From Bdellovibrionales bacterium (GTDB lineage Bacteria > Bdellovibrionota > Bdellovibrionia > Bdellovibrionales > JAGQZY01), in the NCBI GenBank assembly GCA_964230645.1, contig CAXRHT010000001.1, positions 619,194 through 683,193 of the forward strand: a stretch of 64,000 nucleotides of DNA, given 5' to 3'. The position numbers were made by a program, and so were the translations under genes. Under the pieces are notes generated by a model that had not been told where the DNA came from, made no database searches, and saw only the letters and a program-made list of their open reading frames with translations. Shown here in pieces: positions 9,436-63,925 of the stretch. Position 1 is the stretch's first letter; the number at the start of each line of letters is the position of its first letter.

Positions 9436-9993
9436 ATGAAAATTTACACAAAACAGGGTGATAAGGGAGAAACCTCACTGGTTGACGGTTCAAAAGTCAA
9501 AAAATCCACCCTCCGCATTGAAACCTATGGGACTGTGGACGAGCTCAACTCTCATCTGGGTATCCTCTCCTCACTTTTAGAGGGTGATGAACAATTGAGC
9601 ATCGCACGTTATGACGTCATGCACCTGCAAACCTATCTTTTCCAACTGGGAAGCCAGCTGGCATGTATCGATGAAAAAATGGCAGAAAAACTCCCCCAGT
9701 TTGATGAGTCTCTCGTATCAGAAATCGAAGAAAAAATTGATAAAATGGATGAAAAACTTCCGGAGCTTAAAAACTTTATTTTACCCGGCGGACATCAAGG
9801 CGCTAGCCAGGCCCATGTTTGTCGAACCATCTGTCGTCGCGCCGAGCGTCTTAGTGTCAAACTCGATGAAGAAGAAAAGCTCCGCTTTCCTGCCATTGTC
9901 TTCTTAAATCGTTTGAGTGACTATTTCTTTGTCCTGGCTCGACATATTAATCACCAAAAGGGCATCCCTTCGCATGAGTGGAAACCCGAATGA
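9436..9993 (+). CDS. ATP:cob(I)alamin adenosyltransferase, PduO/MMAB type
   Basis: N-terminus MKIYTKQGDKGETSL...YGTVDELNSHLG matches the PduO-type signature; 185 aa. Confidence 0.8.
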   Translation: MKIYTKQGDKGETSLVDGSKVKKSTLRIETYGTVDELNSHLGILSSLLEGDEQLSIARYDVMHLQTYLFQLGSQLACIDEKMAEKLPQFDESLVSEIEEKIDKMDEKLPELKNFILPGGHQGASQAHVCRTICRRAERLSVKLDEEEKLRFPAIVFLNRLSDYFFVLARHINHQKGIPSHEWKPE

Positions 9994-20548: not shown

Positions 20549-21214
20549 ATGAATAATCTTTTCCAGACATTTAGAAAATCTAACAAAAACGAAGCTGGCT
20601 TCTCCTTAATGGAGCTTATGATCGTTCTGATTATCGTGGGAATGTTTATTACATTCAGTGCAAGAAAGCTGGTCAATAGAAGCACCCAAATGAAAGCGGC
20701 CGTTCGCGATTTTTCAGCGATTACTAAAAAACTACGCAACCGTGCAAGGCTTGATAATAAAACCTATCGGCTGGTTTTTGACCTACCCGTGGACAAATCA
20801 AAAGCTCAAAGCTACTGGGTAGAATCAACGAGCAAACCCGCCCTTCTCCTCTCAAGCGAAGAACGGGAGGAATTAGAAGAAGACCTTGAAACTGTAGAAG
20901 ATGAAGAAGGTAACGAGCAGAAACCAGACCCACAAGGTTTTGTCACAGACAATGGAGTCATTAAAAAAGCTCCGGCTACCCTGCCCGATGGACTTTTTTT
21001 CCAGTCTATCGAAATCGATGGTGACCCTATAGAAAAAGTCGAAACAGGCCGCGTTTATATCTACTTTTTCCCCCAAGGCTATGTTCAGAAAAGTGCGATT
21101 CACCTGACAAACCGTGATACCCTGAACTGGACTCTTGTTATTTCAGGACTCACAGGACGGGTCGATATTTTTAACAAGGAAAGAGAACTCAAGGAATTCA
21201 AGGTGGAAGACTGA
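20549..21214 (+). CDS. gspH: Minor pseudopilin, GspH-like
   Basis: Prepilin motif EAGFSLMELMIVLIIVGM; position after gspG. Confidence 0.6.
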   Translation: MNNLFQTFRKSNKNEAGFSLMELMIVLIIVGMFITFSARKLVNRSTQMKAAVRDFSAITKKLRNRARLDNKTYRLVFDLPVDKSKAQSYWVESTSKPALLLSSEEREELEEDLETVEDEEGNEQKPDPQGFVTDNGVIKKAPATLPDGLFFQSIEIDGDPIEKVETGRVYIYFFPQGYVQKSAIHLTNRDTLNWTLVISGLTGRVDIFNKERELKEFKVED

Positions 21215-21741
21215 TGAGATTGAAACTGGGTGAAAAAGGATTCTCACTTTTTGAAGTACTGATTGCCATGTCGATCATGTCGTCGGCCGCCATCCTTATG
21301 TATATGTCTTGGCACGGTAACCAGGTTCGAGTGCAAAAAATGGCCATAAACAATAAAGCGGCTCTTCTATTAGACCAAATCATGTCACGCCTTGAAATCG
21401 AATACTCTGAGAGAATCACGCAGCTTCCTGAAAATGATGGTGGAGAATTCGAAGGCAATCCCCGTTACAGCTGGAAAATGGAATCTCGCGATTTTGAAAT
21501 GCCGGATTTAAGGTCGGTCTTGATTTCAGGAGATCAAGGGAATGAAGCCATGCTTCTCGTGGTGGATAAACTCACTGAATATCTGAATCAAAGTGTTAAA
21601 GAAATGAAAGTCACAGTCTTTTACAAGCGCGGTAAACAAACAACCTCCTATACGGCCACCACTTTTCTTGTCGATTACAATCAAAGCATTCCTATTGGAG
21701 GAGGCATCCCTGGGGGAGCCGGGGGAGGTTTTGGGCAATGA
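21214..21741 (+). CDS. gspI: Minor pseudopilin, GspI-like
   Basis: Prepilin motif EKGFSLFEVLIAMSIM. Start overlaps the gspH stop (TGATG). Confidence 0.6.
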   Translation: MRLKLGEKGFSLFEVLIAMSIMSSAAILMYMSWHGNQVRVQKMAINNKAALLLDQIMSRLEIEYSERITQLPENDGGEFEGNPRYSWKMESRDFEMPDLRSVLISGDQGNEAMLLVVDKLTEYLNQSVKEMKVTVFYKRGKQTTSYTATTFLVDYNQSIPIGGGIPGGAGGGFGQ

Positions 21742-22823
21742 CCGGACTTCCTCGTTTGCTTTCGGGGGCCTGTCCAAGAGCCCTCAGCAATAAAATTCGC
21801 GAAGCTTTTCAAAGAGGCACGCACTCGGGTGCACTTCGTCTCCCGGATTGCACCACTTCGTGGCGCAACCCGAGATACGCAGCGCTCGCTGCTCGAGCCT
21901 CTTTGAAAAGCTTCGCGAATTTTATTGCTGAGATCTCCTGGCCAGTTTTTCAAGAGAAATACCGTAAGGGCTTTACCCTTATTGAAGTTATGATTTCTAT
22001 GTTTATTATGGCTATGTTGACCATTTTGGTTTCAACTTCCATTCGTACGGCTGTGCAAAACAAGAAGAAAATTGAGGATCGAGTTAAAACCGAGACTATT
22101 CTTTATGATACTCTTCGAGTCTTGAAGCTTGATATTGAGCGGGCCTTTCATTACCAAGATGTTTTTTGGGAAATTGAGAATTTGGCCATACAACAACTTG
22201 AAAATGAGCAGCAGAATCCCGGAGGACAAGGTCAAGGGCAAGTACAGGGTGGTTTTCAGAGAACGCAGCAGCCGGCTTTTGGAGCCAATCCTAATGTGCA
22301 GCAACGCCAGCCTCCGGTTCAACTCACACAGTTTTTAGGGGAGAAAAACAGTCTGCATTTTACTTCTCTTAATAACTTTCGCACCAAGTACAATGCGCCT
22401 GAGAGTGATCAAATGGAGGTGGGCTTTTACTTAGAGTCTTGTGAAAGACGAGACGGTAAAGGAAACACGCAATGTTTATGGAGACGGTCTTCTCCGCAAA
22501 TTGATGATGAAGTGGATAAAGGTGGTACAAAAGTTGTTGTGGCCGAGCACGTCCAAAAGTTTCAGCTTCGTTACCGTGATAAAAGAGAAGATGGCGAATG
22601 GGTGGATCAGTGGCGCTCGGACAACAAGGGACGCTCTGATCATCGCAATAAATTTCCCCACTTTGTGGAAGTCGAAATTGAAATTGAAGATGAGGACGAT
22701 AAAAGGTCCAGAAAAGTAAGCCAAACTATGGTGGTCTCTTTAGCTTTCCCCAATAATCAAACTCACATTCAACAGCAGCAGCAACAACAACAACTTCAAC
22801 AGAACTCGGGGGCCTTTCAATGA
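21738..22823 (+). CDS. gspJ: Minor pseudopilin, GspJ-like, with a roughly 72 aa leader containing a palindromic insertion and Q-rich inserts
   Basis: Prepilin motif RKGFTLIEVMISMFIMAML lies about 73 codons after the ATG. That ATG is coupled to the gspI stop (ATGA). The only other in-frame start before the motif is TTG 21903, inside the repeat arm. Confidence 0.65.
   Translation: MTGLPRLLSGACPRALSNKIREAFQRGTHSGALRLPDCTTSWRNPRYAALAARASLKSFANFIAEISWPVFQEKYRKGFTLIEVMISMFIMAMLTILVSTSIRTAVQNKKKIEDRVKTETILYDTLRVLKLDIERAFHYQDVFWEIENLAIQQLENEQQNPGGQGQGQVQGGFQRTQQPAFGANPNVQQRQPPVQLTQFLGEKNSLHFTSLNNFRTKYNAPESDQMEVGFYLESCERRDGKGNTQCLWRRSSPQIDDEVDKGGTKVVVAEHVQKFQLRYRDKREDGEWVDQWRSDNKGRSDHRNKFPHFVEVEIEIEDEDDKRSRKVSQTMVVSLAFPNNQTHIQQQQQQQQLQQNSGAFQ
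21783..21932. repeat. 150 bp palindromic element (perfect 36 bp arms, GC-rich 78 bp core) inside the gspJ 5' coding region
   Basis: Arm 21783-21818 ctcagcaataaaattcgcgaagcttttcaaagaggc is the exact reverse complement of 21897-21932. Weaker complementarity continues outward to about 21769/21946. Confidence 0.9.
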
Positions 22824-24133: not shown

Positions 24134-24321
24134 TTTAGACCTTAGTCGGTGCTCGCTTCCTTGTTTGGCATAGACTGCCCTCTCTCACCTACGAGTGATT
24201 GATTTCTTCAGTATAGAAAGGCTTATATGGACAGCAAACTATTGATATCATAGAATGATTAAGCGGCAGAGCTTCAGTTTAAAAGCTAAAATTAGCTTTT
24301 GGTTTTTAAAAAAGGATTTTT

Positions 24322-25959
24322 ATGAGAAGTGTTGGAATTGATATTGGAAGAAACAGTATTAAGGTTGTGGAAGTTCTTGCCAGCAATCGCACCTACGAAA
24401 TCACAAAAGCTAAAGAATACAAAATTCTCAATATGGAAAGCAGTGATCAAGAAATAGATATCCTGCAAACACTTCACACTATTTCCAAAGAATTTGATAC
24501 TGAGTCTGCCAAAACAATTTGCTCGATCCGCCAACAGTATATTAGCTCTCGAAAGGTCTTTTTCCCTTTCAAAGAGCGCATGAAAATCCATAAAAGTTTA
24601 GCTTTCGAACTTGAAGACGACATCCCTCTGACGATTGATAAAGCCATCTACGATTCTAAAATTATTAAATTTCACGAAAAGTCAGCAGAAGTCGTTGCTA
24701 TGGCCTGTGTGCGCGAGGAAATCGAAAAGACTTTAGATATCATGGAGAGAGGTCATATTGATCCTGATGTGATCACACCTGAGTTTTGTGCGATCGCTAA
24801 TCTTTATGAAAAATGGTACAAAGCGCCTGACGCTGTTACTGAGGAAACCAACGAATCCACAGAGCCTGATAAACTTGTCGTTCACATTGGGCATTCAAAG
24901 ACTTTTGCAGGAGTTGTGAGTCGAGGCTATCTTGTTTGGGGGCGTAGTATTATGTGGGGGGCTGAAAAAGTGGCCGCCGCTATTTCCAATAGCTTTCAAG
25001 TCCCCTTTACCACCGCCCACGACATGATGCCAGACAAGGCCTTTGTACTTCTCAGCACAACTGACGCCAGTAAAGAGCATATCAAAATGTCGGAAGCCGT
25101 AACTAAAGCATTCGAACCATTGATTCAATCGTTAAGGCTTACGATCATGTTGGCAAATACTGACTACGGCACCAACGTTTCTGAAGTGGAGCTGATTGGC
25201 TCACCTAGTAAGATCAAAAATATTGCGCCCTATTTTACCCAAGAACTTGAGAAGTCTACCAACATCTCAAATCCCGCCCATCACTTTAGTGATCGTCACA
25301 TTAAAAATCATGAGCGCTTGGGGGACGCCTTTTTAATGGCCCTTGGTTTATGTATTGAAGGTTTAAGACGTCCCTTCAATCCTCCAGTCAACTTTCGACA
25401 AATGGAGTACGCTAAGAAGAACCTATCCTTTGAAAAATTTTGGGAAAAATGGGGGTATACGGCAAAGCTCATGGCCGCTGGTTATTTCTGCTATGTGGTC
25501 TACGCCGTCGCGATTGATACCGTCAGCACCCAGCTTGAACAGGCCTCTTATGATGTCATGATGAATCAAGCCAGTAAAATAGCGAAACTTAAGGGACGAA
25601 GTGCGACGCCTGGTAAAATAAAGGCTTTTATTCGAGATAAAAATAAAGAGGCGGATTTGGTAAAAGTCTATGACCAACTTGATGAGATCAACTCGCCCAT
25701 GAAATTCATTAATGAAATTAGCCAAATTTTACCTCCAAATAAAAACAATGAGTCTTTTGATGTTAGGCGCATGATGATCAAAGATCGCCAAATCACTCTT
25801 CAAGGGGTGGCAAAATCCGATGAGATAATAAAATCCATCGACAAGGCTCTAAAGGGTGTCGCTCTCAATGGCAAGGTCTCAAAAGCGCCCGCTACGATTC
25901 CTGATGAGGCTGGCAAGAAAAAGTTTGGCTTTAAGTTTAATGTGAAGAGAAAGAATTGA
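24322..25959 (+). CDS. gspL: GspL-like assembly protein (PilM-like actin-fold N-domain, TM, periplasmic domain)
   Basis: N-terminus MRSVGIDIGRNSIKVVEV is PilM/GspL-like. One central TM (LMAAGYFCYVVYAVAI). Positioned between gspK and gspM. Confidence 0.6.
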   Translation: MRSVGIDIGRNSIKVVEVLASNRTYEITKAKEYKILNMESSDQEIDILQTLHTISKEFDTESAKTICSIRQQYISSRKVFFPFKERMKIHKSLAFELEDDIPLTIDKAIYDSKIIKFHEKSAEVVAMACVREEIEKTLDIMERGHIDPDVITPEFCAIANLYEKWYKAPDAVTEETNESTEPDKLVVHIGHSKTFAGVVSRGYLVWGRSIMWGAEKVAAAISNSFQVPFTTAHDMMPDKAFVLLSTTDASKEHIKMSEAVTKAFEPLIQSLRLTIMLANTDYGTNVSEVELIGSPSKIKNIAPYFTQELEKSTNISNPAHHFSDRHIKNHERLGDAFLMALGLCIEGLRRPFNPPVNFRQMEYAKKNLSFEKFWEKWGYTAKLMAAGYFCYVVYAVAIDTVSTQLEQASYDVMMNQASKIAKLKGRSATPGKIKAFIRDKNKEADLVKVYDQLDEINSPMKFINEISQILPPNKNNESFDVRRMMIKDRQITLQGVAKSDEIIKSIDKALKGVALNGKVSKAPATIPDEAGKKKFGFKFNVKRKN

Positions 25960-26649: not shown

Positions 26650-27654
26650 ATGAACTCAAAACAAGTTTTACAATCCCTATTGAATGTTTTTAAGTACCAC
26701 AAAAAAAAGATTTTCTTCTTTTTTGGCTCTGTTGTTTTCGGAATCATTGTTTTGTTTCCCTACGATGATTTGAGCGACTTCATTACTCAACAGGTGACCC
26801 AAGAAACTCAAAGCAATGTCTATTTGCAATTTGACGGGCTTTCTTTTGGTCTCATGCCTCAGTTGGGTATTAAAATGGAAAACGTTTTAATCGAGACCGT
26901 TTACGCCCCGACTATGTCGGTCAAGACTCTTGGCTTTGCTCCCAAAATTTCCTCTCTACTCGGTTCGGCAGCAGGAAAGCTCGTTGCCTATGGTCTCTTT
27001 GACGGCGAAGCCTCTGTTGATTTTGGCCCAAGTAATGAACTCGACATTGAAGGCGAAGAGATGGGACTTGAGGTTGAGCTAGAAAATGTCGATCTCAAGG
27101 AACTGACCAAATTTATCAATGAATCCAAGAAACTTCCTGTCACCATGAATGGAACCACGCAATTGGATTCTAGTTTTTATGTGGACCCAAGCTTTAAAGA
27201 ACAGCCAAAGGGCACAGTCATTTTAGCTGTGAAAAACTTAGACATTCCATCCTCTACTCTCCCTATCAATATGAATGGGGTTCAAATGAGCCTTTCTCTT
27301 CCCGCTTTAAAACTCTCGGAGCTAAAGCTTGAAGGCAACCTCGATGATGGAAAGTTCTTTATTCGCGAGGGAAAAATTGGCGAAACTAAAAATGACCTTT
27401 ACGGAACTATTACTGGTGATGTCTTCTTCCAAATGGCCCCTGGGGGCCGCTTCCTTCCCGGTGGTTACGACTTAAAAGTGAACCTGAACATCAGTGAGAA
27501 TTTGCAAAGACAGCTCAAACTTTTTCTGAGTGTTCTCGATATGCATGAAGGCATTGGTGATAAATACAAATTTAAAAGTCTTCGAGGCGTGCGCTATTCC
27601 ATGCGCATCTCTGCCCGCAACTTCAGCTCAGCCCCCCAAGTCAAATCCTACTAA
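26650..27654 (+). CDS. gspN: GspN-like protein
   Basis: N-terminal TM (IFFFFGSVVFGIIVLF). Last gene of the gsp run. Assignment is by position and architecture only. Confidence 0.45.
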   Translation: MNSKQVLQSLLNVFKYHKKKIFFFFGSVVFGIIVLFPYDDLSDFITQQVTQETQSNVYLQFDGLSFGLMPQLGIKMENVLIETVYAPTMSVKTLGFAPKISSLLGSAAGKLVAYGLFDGEASVDFGPSNELDIEGEEMGLEVELENVDLKELTKFINESKKLPVTMNGTTQLDSSFYVDPSFKEQPKGTVILAVKNLDIPSSTLPINMNGVQMSLSLPALKLSELKLEGNLDDGKFFIREGKIGETKNDLYGTITGDVFFQMAPGGRFLPGGYDLKVNLNISENLQRQLKLFLSVLDMHEGIGDKYKFKSLRGVRYSMRISARNFSSAPQVKSY

Positions 27655-27772
27655 AAGGTACCAGGTTCTTTTTTCGGAAGCACAGTGACAATCTGTAGCT
27701 ACTATCTACTTAAAAGAGACCCGATACTTTAAAATTGGCGCTGCGCTTCCGAAAATAGAACCTGGTACCTTT
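27654..27772. repeat. MITE-like palindromic element, family copy 1
   Basis: TIRs are aaaggtaccaggttcttttttcggaagc (27654-27681) and gcttccgaaaatagaacctggtaccttt (27745-27772), matching 27/28. It begins at the last base of the gspN stop codon. Confidence 0.8.
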
Positions 27773-62488: not shown

Positions 62489-62504
62489 ATTGAAAGTACC
62501 TTGA

Positions 62505-62693
62505 AAGTACCTGGTTCTTTTTTCGTATGCGTGGTGTTAATGCCGACGAGTCCTCACTGAAAATTCAAGTCTGGTGTTGGTTCTCCCTAATAGCCAGGCT
62601 TCGGAAACAGAAATGGCAATCCAAATTCACTACCGGGACAATGATGTTAAAAGCAATCTTGACGTTGTGCTTCCGAAAAAAGAACCTGGTACC
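62505..62693. repeat. MITE-like palindromic element, family copy 2
   Basis: The reverse complement of the right end (62666-62693) is gggtaccaggttcttttttcggaagcac, matching the copy-1 left TIR. The left end gtacctggttcttttttcgtatgc is degenerate. It fills the gap between convergent SOUL and hutI genes. Confidence 0.75.
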
Positions 62694-62695
62694 CT

Positions 62696-63925
62696 CTAGG
62701 GTTTTACTGCTTTTCCTTTTATATAGGTTTTTTCGGCCTGATGATTTTCCATCGAGTAGAAGAAGTTTTGCCAGGGTTTTTCTGTGATGAAGAAGTCGGC
62801 TTGTTTTCCTAGGGTGAGTGATCCTCTTTGGTTTTCTAGACCGAGAGCGCAGGCGCCATTGTAGGTGAGTGCTGCGAAGACTTCGGGTAGAGACATTTTC
62901 ATTTTTAATCTTGCAAGAAGACCGACAAAGCTTATGTTCTGAGTGGGACTAGAGCCTGGGTTATGGTCAGTGGCTAGAGCCACTCTTCCGCCTTGATCAA
63001 TGAGAGCTCTGGCATCAGGGTAATCGCATTGAAGGTAAAAGTCGGCGGCTGGAAGAAGGACGGCTACTGTTTGAGACTGAGCGAGAGTTTTTTTGCCTTT
63101 TTTATCAAGGCAGATCACATGGTCAGCCGATTGCGCCTTTAACTCGACAGCCAAATCACTACCACCGGTGAGATTGAGTTGATCGGCGTGAATGGTGACC
63201 TTAAAGCCCATTTCTATGGCTGTGTTCAGATAGTCTTTGGCTTTTTCTTTTGAGAAATAATTCTTTTCAACGAAGATATCCACTCGGTCGGCAAGCTTGT
63301 TTTTCTTTATTATTTTTAAGTCTTCTTTGAGAGTTTCAAGGTAGCTTTCCTCATTCATTTCTTTGGGAATGGCGTGCGCCCCTAGGTAAGTGGTAACCAC
63401 TTGGATACCTTTCAGGGCTCTGGCGGCTTTGAGCATTTTTTTTTCGGTCTTTAAATTGAGGCCGTAGCCACTTTTTATTTCAACTGTTGTAACACCTTGT
63501 TTGAGATGCTCCTTCACCCTTTGTTGAGCGAGTTCGGTGAGCTTTTTCTCACTGGCCTTGCGAGTGGACTCGACTGTAAATAAAATCCCTCCGCCTTTAT
63601 TGGCGATTTCTTGATAGCTGGTTCCCTGATTTCGAAGTTCAAACTCGTGCTTTCTATCGCCAGCGAAAACAAAATGGGTATGGCAATCGATAAATCCCGG
63701 AAAGACGTTTTTCTTTTTTAAGTCTACCTCTTTCAAAGCTTTGTAAGCTTTAGGGATTTTATCATTGTTTCCAATCCAAGAGATTTTACCGTCCTCTACA
63801 GCGAAAGCTTTTTTCTTCACAACACCGAGATCCTCTTTTAAAGGCTTTCGGCCCTGCTTTTGGAGGACTCCTGAGAGAGTCATCAACTCCCCTGCATTTC
63901 GAAAGATGGTTCCCTTTTTAGCCAA
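62696..63925 (-). CDS. hutI: Imidazolonepropionase
   Basis: GFIDCHTHFVFAGDR, GGGI and HADQL motifs of the amidohydrolase HutI family; 409 aa. Confidence 0.85.
   Translation of the reverse strand: MAKKGTIFRNAGELMTLSGVLQKQGRKPLKEDLGVVKKKAFAVEDGKISWIGNNDKIPKAYKALKEVDLKKKNVFPGFIDCHTHFVFAGDRKHEFELRNQGTSYQEIANKGGGILFTVESTRKASEKKLTELAQQRVKEHLKQGVTTVEIKSGYGLNLKTEKKMLKAARALKGIQVVTTYLGAHAIPKEMNEESYLETLKEDLKIIKKNKLADRVDIFVEKNYFSKEKAKDYLNTAIEMGFKVTIHADQLNLTGGSDLAVELKAQSADHVICLDKKGKKTLAQSQTVAVLLPAADFYLQCDYPDARALIDQGGRVALATDHNPGSSPTQNISFVGLLARLKMKMSLPEVFAALTYNGACALGLENQRGSLTLGKQADFFITEKPWQNFFYSMENHQAEKTYIKGKAVKP

Follow-up and report, generated by a model that had tools for sequence, protein, structure and literature searches.

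The gspJ gene of a Bdellovibrionales bacterium, which encodes a type II secretion pseudopilin, carries a long DNA palindrome in the segment coding for its leader peptide. We analyzed this palindrome in a 64,000-nt stretch of contig CAXRHT010000001.1 (assembly GCA_964230645.1), hereafter the window, to which all coordinates refer unless another locus is named, and established that a member of a repeated hairpin family has been inserted there in frame. Sequence comparison further established that the 78-nt core at the center of the hairpin is under purifying selection at each of two loci, neutral sites having changed by 39% meanwhile; that the arms flanking the core are kept complementary whatever their sequence; and that gspJ stays functional.

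A hairpin element inserted in the gspJ leader

The gspJ reading frame (21738–22823, + strand; 361 aa, identical to P0001) matches PF11612 (T2SSJ) and PF07963 (N_methyl) and encodes a 78-aa leader followed by mature GspJ. Its T2SSJ domain, N-terminal methylation motif, and position in a gsp operon identify the product as GspJ. The prepilin cleavage and assembly motif, G78/FTLIEVM (21969–21992, + strand; cut between G and F), has Gly-1, Phe+1, and Glu+5, and residues G78, F79, T80, L81, E83, and V84 are invariant across 16 GspJ sequences (the window protein and 15 orthologs).

Between the gspJ ATG and this cleavage site, perfect 36-nt arms flank an in-frame, GC-rich 78-nt core, confirming a preliminary description of this DNA. 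The arm sequence, CTCAGCAATAAAATTCGCGAAGCTTTTCAAAGAGGC, has two exact occurrences in the window, at 21783–21818 (+) and 21897–21932 (−), with no third site in the window even at 3 mismatches, and 0/100 shuffles gave a 36-nt arm match. Weaker pairing continues outward to give 52-nt arms (21770–21821 and 21894–21945) that are 90% complementary, and the 78-nt center is itself a degenerate palindrome on the same axis, with an internal 12-nt palindrome, GCACTCGGGTGC. RNA folding, a check suggested earlier, returned a single long and stable hairpin centered at ~21858; the + strand reaches −108 kcal/mol (z = −10.7), and the − strand −124 kcal/mol (z = −14.6). The palindrome has a GC content of 55–62%, compared with ~40% in its flanks. 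It had been described as free of stop codons on either strand; this holds for the gene frame and for its mirror frame on the − strand, whereas the other frames contain 1–2 stops.

Comparison with orthologs indicates that the palindrome was inserted. Among the 83 GspJ homologs found, N-terminal extension is confined to the cluster that includes the window protein, and the 15 aligned orthologs start M-x(2–17)-G, then FTL(I/V/M)EV, giving leaders of 3–18 aa. Alignment of the gspI-gspJ junction, as had been proposed, revealed empty sites in three related genomes (loci L004, L006, and L008) of the form ...CAATGAAAAACCG-GGNTTYAC; in these relatives the ATGA overlap of the two genes is followed by GGNTTYAC 9–30 nt on, and the window has ~201–219 nt extra. 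The empty sites and the short leaders of other orthologs bear out the idea of a lineage-specific insertion in the leader-coding region, although the extra DNA is larger than the 150-nt palindrome originally taken to be the insert. We place the whole element at 21741–21956 (+ strand), with approximate boundaries drawn from the empty-site alignment, or ~216 nt extra relative to orthologs, a size that assumes the ancestral leader MKYRKG.

The element opens with a 5′ extension (21741–21769) that ends in a G-run (21764–21768) and is fast evolving, with 4 differences from the allele of a related hydrothermal-vent lineage. The left arm follows (21770–21818; perfect from 21783, with the outer 13 nt imperfect), then the core, which forms the imperfect hairpin apex (21819–21896), the right arm (21897–21945; perfect to 21932, with the outer 13 nt imperfect and an in-frame TTG at 21903 inside it), and a 3′ extension (21946–21956) that opens with the T-run TTTTTC. 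All parts are given on the + strand. The word CAAGAG occurs at both 21775 and 21950, but the vent allele does not preserve it.

The insert is present in NCBI assembly GCA_041252335.1 and, with allelic differences, in two assemblies held at ENA that derive from a single metagenome run of a hydrothermal vent (SRR1217452), and we rejected an assembly artifact on these grounds. We also rejected the possibility that the arms are inverted copies of the target site, as the empty sites of the relatives contain nothing similar to the gspJ arms. Together, these comparisons show that the gspJ copy entered directly after the ATGA overlap, in the one frame free of stops, before the two sampled lineages split. 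The closest insert-free relative has an extra called ORF of 49 aa between gspJ and gspK (L004 10867–11016), with no counterpart in the window.

A second copy shares the core and differs in its arms

A right-end fragment of the core was seen at the edge of locus L012, 10 kb past the right end of the window, and a complete second element was then found in locus L014 (9779–9956), on the same contig and ~52 kb from gspJ. This copy sits in a spacer of 376 nt, with a divergently transcribed gene on one side and, on the other, a cupin gene that encodes a signal peptide. Its 50-nt arms are 98% complementary and enclose a 78-nt spacer, repeating the 50 + 78 + 50 nt layout found at gspJ. The two cores (gspJ 21819–21896 and cupin L014 9829–9906) are identical at 67–69/78 positions across alleles, the window copy at 69/78 (88%), whereas the arms, aligned without gaps, are identical at 19–23/50 positions (40–46%) between copies while being complementary at 45–49/50 within each copy. 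The 36-bp arm, proposed earlier as a probe for copy number, fails in this role: the arms are copy specific, and the repeated part is the core. The conserved ends expected of a MITE (a miniature transposable element with inverted repeats) are thus reversed here, with the center shared and the arms differing between copies.

Each copy is preceded by a G-run, followed by TTTT(T)C, and oriented like its downstream gene, and both appear to sit after an expression start and before the body of an exported-protein gene. The element plan is best read as two mutually complementary arms of ~50 nt on either side of the 78-nt core, with a short G-rich extension at the 5′ end and a T-run after the second arm. 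The word ATGACC precedes both copies, which at n = 2 copies is uninformative, and the 5′ extension resembles the stretch before the cupin copy (ATGACC..TTCC.CG..GCTT..GGGG), a resemblance equaled by 78/500 shuffles and not significant. In the frame equivalent to gspJ the cupin copy contains 2 stops, and it reads TGA (CTTGAG) where gspJ has CTCGAG, as would be expected if selection keeps the frame open only at gspJ.

In GCA_041252335.1, of which 91.7 kb was readable and searched, no perfect hairpin with arms of 20 nt or more was present besides these two copies, and no third copy was found. The family is best read as a small set of directional ~216-nt hairpin elements that is undescribed in the libraries searched.

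Further variation surrounds the cupin copy. A deletion allele of the locus (L016 556–888, JGI 3300048631, compared with L015 and L014) has lost the left arm and core together with 23 nt of the right arm, with breakpoints in the short direct repeat CATTCC / CATTTCC. To the left of the element, L014 9587–9770 has 3 differences in 184 nt between lineages, where adjacent genes differ by ~10%. This segment contains, by eye, a promoter-like TTGAAA-17-TATGAC, placed so that transcription would begin at the 5′ end of the element; the sole site reported by a promoter scan of the segment is on the − strand (9700–9673). A cupin homolog in a more distant relative (L018) is not syntenic and is without the element.

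Core and arms evolve under different constraints

To place these conservation patterns against a neutral rate, we used a sister lineage represented in a hydrothermal-vent metagenome (ANAN14-1) and two JGI samples, so that the comparison covers two loci in essentially two lineages. The window and the vent lineage differ at 10.8% of positions overall and at 39% of four-fold sites (285/727), with amino acid differences of 1–3%. The gspJ palindrome differs from the vent allele at 3/176 positions (1/59 at third codon positions), including 0/78 in the core and 2/50 in the arms, and is the most conserved 176-nt stretch in a 6.9-kb alignment; the leader flanks outside it differ at 7/52 positions, with seven amino acids changed. 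At the cupin locus, the core differs between lineages at 1–2/78 positions, and the left and right arms at 17/50 and 16/50, respectively, with 48–49/50 positions still pairing. The nine core differences that separate the gspJ and cupin copies are the same in both lineages, indicating that the copies have not been homogenized and that each core was conserved independently. Recent recombination as an explanation for the conservation was rejected, because the tract would have to match the palindrome at gspJ, yet at the cupin locus would have to be confined to the 78-nt core, on both sides of which the arms have diverged.

The substitutions themselves follow the pairing. Two of the three gspJ differences, 21806 T→C and 21909 A→G, are exact pairing partners that changed together, synonymously in one arm and as Ser58Gly in the other. 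The third, 21777 A→G, converts an A·C mismatch to G-C on the + strand and a G·U to G-C on the − strand. All changes in the cupin arms between lineages are mirrored in the opposite arm; in one block (L014 9802–9819 / 9916–9933), 13/18 positions differ, again mirrored, while core-adjacent arm positions are identical, which suggests that this 18-nt block arose by block replacement rather than by point substitutions. Mature GspJ shows 3.2% amino acid differences vs 31% four-fold-site differences between the two insert-carrying lineages, indicating that it is under purifying selection and that the gene is functional.

These rates bear on whether the element is purely selfish, that is, palindromic DNA like a MITE or a Rickettsia palindromic element (RPE), without host function, that landed where extra gspJ codons were harmless. 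Such an origin agrees with an insertion that has empty sites in relatives, with repetition of the element in the genome, with the deletion allele at the cupin locus, and with the known in-frame palindromic insertions of RPEs and other MITEs (PMC10969869, PMC3184786). Orthologous selfish copies should drift, however, and neither core has done so relative to the neutral rate; homogenization is ruled out by the inter-copy differences kept in both lineages, and the conserved part is the center rather than the termini. No clear target-site duplication was recognized at the inferred boundaries by eye, with no dedicated test, and no transposase, integrase, or reverse transcriptase Pfam family was found among the called genes of L003, L012, L014, and L019 (~72/92 kb, including the window outside 32.8–52.7 kb). 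We therefore consider a purely selfish element unlikely.

Arm pairing and the strand on which the element may act

In a four-sequence alignment, 98% of cells are paired and 33–34 pairs have changed on both sides, a result matched by 0/500 shuffles, and shifting the 3′ partners by 1–3 columns reduces pairing to 31–45%. As the DNA is palindromic, these statistics hold for both strands, and RNA constraint and arm correction in DNA are indistinguishable by this measure. The core offers a strand-specific signal: by our own mapping, 6–7/7 one-sided core substitutions fall at unpaired positions of the + strand fold, vs 3/7 for the − strand fold, and two further core changes are compensatory pairs (alignment columns 81/99 and 88/92). 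This sparing of + strand pairs favors an RNA on the sense strand.

Alternatively, the element could act as DNA, as a cruciform, a protein-binding palindrome, or a short segment that inverts by recombination between its arms, with RNA structure incidental. The arms contain 0 G·U (G·T) pairs among 200 arm positions, as arm-to-arm correction predicts, and the internal 12-nt palindrome of the core recurs at the cupin locus as GCACCCGGGTGC. A further contig, L017 (1–60; Logan SRR35531640), shows the left core half inverted and joined via an arm to the right flank, reflecting either a core that has truly inverted between its perfect arms or a palindrome that the assembler walked wrongly; a de Bruijn mis-walk explains it equally well, given that the arms are longer than the assembler word and that only 30 nt of the core are covered before the contig ends. 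The asymmetric flanks (G-run vs T-run), the shared orientation of both copies with their downstream genes, the one-sided core substitutions that avoid + strand pairs, and the lack of any recombinase gene seen nearby all argue against a DNA-level element, which we regard as rather improbable.

Predicted translation of the extended leader

The predicted leader, M1–G78, is longer than the ~72 aa first estimated and is basic, with 13 K/R vs 4 D/E (+9 net). Like a class III signal peptide it ends in Gly and is hydrophilic and basic, but its 78 aa exceed the 6–26 aa of such short leaders. The gspJ frame is open in both alleles (361 and 363 aa), and the GGAGG and ATGA stop/start coupling is kept in the three relatives with empty sites.

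We considered whether the arm-encoded peptides (LSNKIREAFQRG and SLKSFANFIAE) matter as protein, for leader solubility or for compatibility with membrane targeting or prepilin peptidase. The gspJ arms have changed at 2/50 positions vs 17/50 in the non-coding cupin arms (Fisher p = 2e-4), and in the mirror geometry, as derived from coordinates, a third-position change forces a first-position change opposite. Nearly all paired substitutions are consequently non-synonymous, which puts the arms at the 1–3% non-synonymous rate of neighboring proteins. The rate gap is not significant (p = 0.10), however, if the 18-nt cupin block is a single event, and leader residues outside the palindrome vary freely (7/~17 codons, mostly radical). 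Core conservation is not at the protein level either, being equal in the non-coding copy, which has a stop codon in that frame. We judge selection on the arm peptides to be quite improbable.

A stem of at least 36 bp is a strong obstacle to translation and a likely RNase III substrate, which counts in favor of a model without translation through the hairpin, in which translation restarts farther downstream, at TTG 21903 or at some other codon, or in which gspJ is effectively decapitated and non-functional. The TTG at 21903, raised as a restart site in the preliminary description, lies in the gspJ frame, and a start there would leave a leader of 23 aa. This codon is inside the duplex, though, with no Shine-Dalgarno-like sequence before it by eye, and from 21933 to the cleavage site neither allele contains an ATG, GTG, or TTG. 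The GGAGG and ATGA coupling conserved in all relatives and the full frame open in both alleles likewise speak against restart, while purifying selection on mature GspJ implies that the gene is expressed somehow. Restart or decapitation is, in our assessment, very unlikely.

A proposed role in the sense transcript

We favor, at about even odds, a model in which gspJ would be translated from its coupled ATG through the hairpin, yielding a basic, 78-aa cytoplasmic leader that prepilin peptidase would remove after Gly78. The insertion may be tolerated in gspJ because the leader is removed, a rationale already offered in the preliminary description and one we rate as sound: prepilin leaders, normally 6–26 aa long, remain cytoplasmic and are cleaved after Gly-1 (PMC4471445). 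In the sense transcript, the element would act as a very stable RNA hairpin, with the conserved apex as a putative recognition feature, and the long duplex and U-run may affect how the downstream message (gspJKLM at this locus, the cupin gene at the second) is processed, degraded, or read through. The stem may also throttle the mRNA, as the preliminary description proposed. Its mode of action could resemble that of Correia and enterobacterial repetitive intergenic consensus (ERIC) hairpins, which are targeted by RNase III or RNase E. The perfect arms may be kept by DNA-level arm-to-arm correction, by selection for pairing, or by both. A guide-and-target role of the arms was rejected, as they have no match of at least 14 nt elsewhere in 92 kb.

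Several points weigh against this model. The absence of G·T pairs in the arms favors DNA-level arm-to-arm copying over selection at the RNA level, and the − strand RNA folds better than the + strand RNA (−122.6 vs −105.1 kcal/mol). The strand argument draws on 7 substitutions at two loci in about two lineages. TTTT(T)C follows both copies, and the downstream genes depend on read-through; an intrinsic-terminator consensus scan called none at either copy, its 3–8 nt loop limit excluding such hairpins. The difference in rate between the gspJ and cupin arms is not explained by the model itself. The deletion allele in L016 shows that the palindrome at the cupin locus is unstable or dispensable in at least one population. 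Finally, translation through the hairpin and the role in RNA are both predictions from sequence.

A bolder possibility, which we hold to be doubtful, is that the family constitutes a new class of host-selected structured nucleic acid, in which a constrained ~78-nt apex sits on a sequence-free but always perfect 50-bp duplex. Its members might be RNA hairpins that a protein recognizes and RNase III cuts into discrete products, or regulated switches at the 5′ ends of genes for envelope or secreted proteins, with one copy domesticated in a cleaved leader.

Searches for further relatives

The arm word CGCGAAGCTTTTCAAAGAGG had 0 matches in 185,579 species genomes and 2 matches in JGI metagenomes, both due to chance and without a palindrome. 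It is a poor probe, as it includes the T/C position at which the vent allele departs and the arms are copy specific; these public genome and metagenome word scans used arm sequence rather than the core. The collections seem not to hold the lineage, or it is masked in them, in that a peptide-seeded scan missed the gspJ locus itself, and JGI matches to GspJ are at most 59% identical. Peptide-seeded scans of viral and genome collections gave nothing that was confirmed, and a core word had 0 matches in viral contigs.

Other approaches returned only the known locus or unrelated sequences. A sensitive arm search of the window and the fetched loci found the gspJ site and its alleles only, six-frame translation compared with 5.8 billion proteins found the gspJ gene only, and an exhaustive search of representatives found only two unrelated repeat proteins. 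There was no blastn match in plasmids and phages. For both copies, Rfam gave only microRNA-precursor and other unrelated models, far below gathering scores, and ARAGORN found no tRNA or tmRNA.

Other features of the locus

Upstream of gspJ, a minor pseudopilin gene (gspI by position; 21214–21741, + strand) ends in a TGA stop that overlaps the gspJ ATG as ATGA. In the identical locus L003, the upstream pseudopilin is a called gene with a faint N_methyl match, and the operon order is T2SSF, T2SSG, two N_methyl pseudopilin genes, gspJ, T2SSK, and a PilM-like gspL. The upstream pseudopilin has a Gly-rich C-terminal tail, GGGIPGGAGGGFGQ (21690–21738). A candidate − strand gene across the region (a 90-aa ORF, 21681–21953) was rejected, having no homologs and a tail that is the antisense of this Gly-rich end. 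GspJ itself contains a Gly/Gln-rich low-complexity insert (22180–22330) whose length varies among orthologs, and a C-terminal poly-Gln tail, QQQQQQQQLQQ (22770–22820).

The second most conserved 176 nt of the alignment with the vent lineage, with 4 differences, is the spacer between gspK and the PilM-like gspL (24215–24390), which probably holds regulatory or translation-initiation signals. The window also contains an unrelated palindromic repeat family, at 27651–27772 and 62499–62700, with ~40-nt arms (AAAGGTACCAGGTTCTTTTTTCGGAAGCAC...) that are 88% complementary between loci and unlike centers of 41 and 138 nt; each copy lies in an intergenic region at the end of a gene. This family has the classical arrangement of conserved arms and variable center, opposite to that of the gspJ element.

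Comparison with known palindromic repeats and prepilin leaders

RPEs, as reviewed following Ogata et al. 2000, are hairpin repeats of ~100–150 bp that are found in frame in genes and are translated (PMC10969869, PMC3184786). They provide the nearest known parallel in behavior, whereas MITE-type hairpins that influence mRNA fate are nearest in mechanism. The gspJ element resembles them in being palindromic, in forming a stable hairpin, and in being inserted in frame in a gene that stays intact with an open frame, through which translation would proceed. It differs in that RPEs share sequence and a conserved peptide along their length, whereas here only the central 78 nt are shared and the other copy has stops; in that RPEs belong to Rickettsia, whereas the nearest named homologs here are labeled Bdellovibrionales, with no sequence similarity to RPEs found; and in that RPEs lie in the mature protein, whereas the gspJ insert lies in a segment that would be cleaved off.

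Correia elements (Neisseria; RNase III) and ERIC elements (Enterobacteria; RNase E) are co-transcribed hairpins whose cleavage alters the level of the flanking message (PMC10969869). As short non-autonomous repeats that form long hairpins, they provide our working model. Their terminal inverted repeats are conserved, unlike the arms described here, which are 40–46% identical between copies compared with 88% for the center; they also have target-site duplications, of which none was recognized here by eye, with no dedicated test.

Repetitive extragenic palindromic sequences (REPs) and REPINs, mobilized by REP-associated tyrosine transposases (RAYTs), are hairpin repeats in operons and intergenic regions, a REPIN being two inverted REPs that form a ~100-nt hairpin; the known roles of REPs include mRNA stabilization and termination (PMC3116915, PMC2817692, PMC3733652). 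REPs are 20–40 nt long with GTAG/CGTC tags, occur in >100 copies, and have arms as their conserved unit. The gspJ and cupin arms are, by contrast, 50 nt long, copy specific, and untagged; RAYT genes were not searched for. Thus, the defining trait of MITEs and REPs (conserved terminal repeats) and that of RPEs (a conserved peptide) are both lacking, and there is no matching Rfam family.

The conservation pattern is reversed relative to known bacterial palindromic repeats: the center is selected, and the non-coding arms drift at the neutral rate while staying complementary. Two questions that are usually confounded are thereby separated: selection on a sequence module, and how a duplex is maintained, be it through selected pairing or through arm correction in DNA. 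Should the element act on the operon mRNA, it would offer a compact means of setting the ratio of gspF-I to gspJ-M in an operon without intergenic space.

The leader invites a second comparison. As in class III signal peptides, Gly-1, Phe+1, Glu+5, and the hydrophobic helix are intact, and the leader is hydrophilic and basic. Class III leaders are 6–26 aa long (PMC4471445), and those of the aligned GspJ orthologs 3–18 aa, whereas this one is 78 aa. A prepilin leader three times the longest usually quoted makes the length tolerance of both the peptidase and membrane targeting directly testable.

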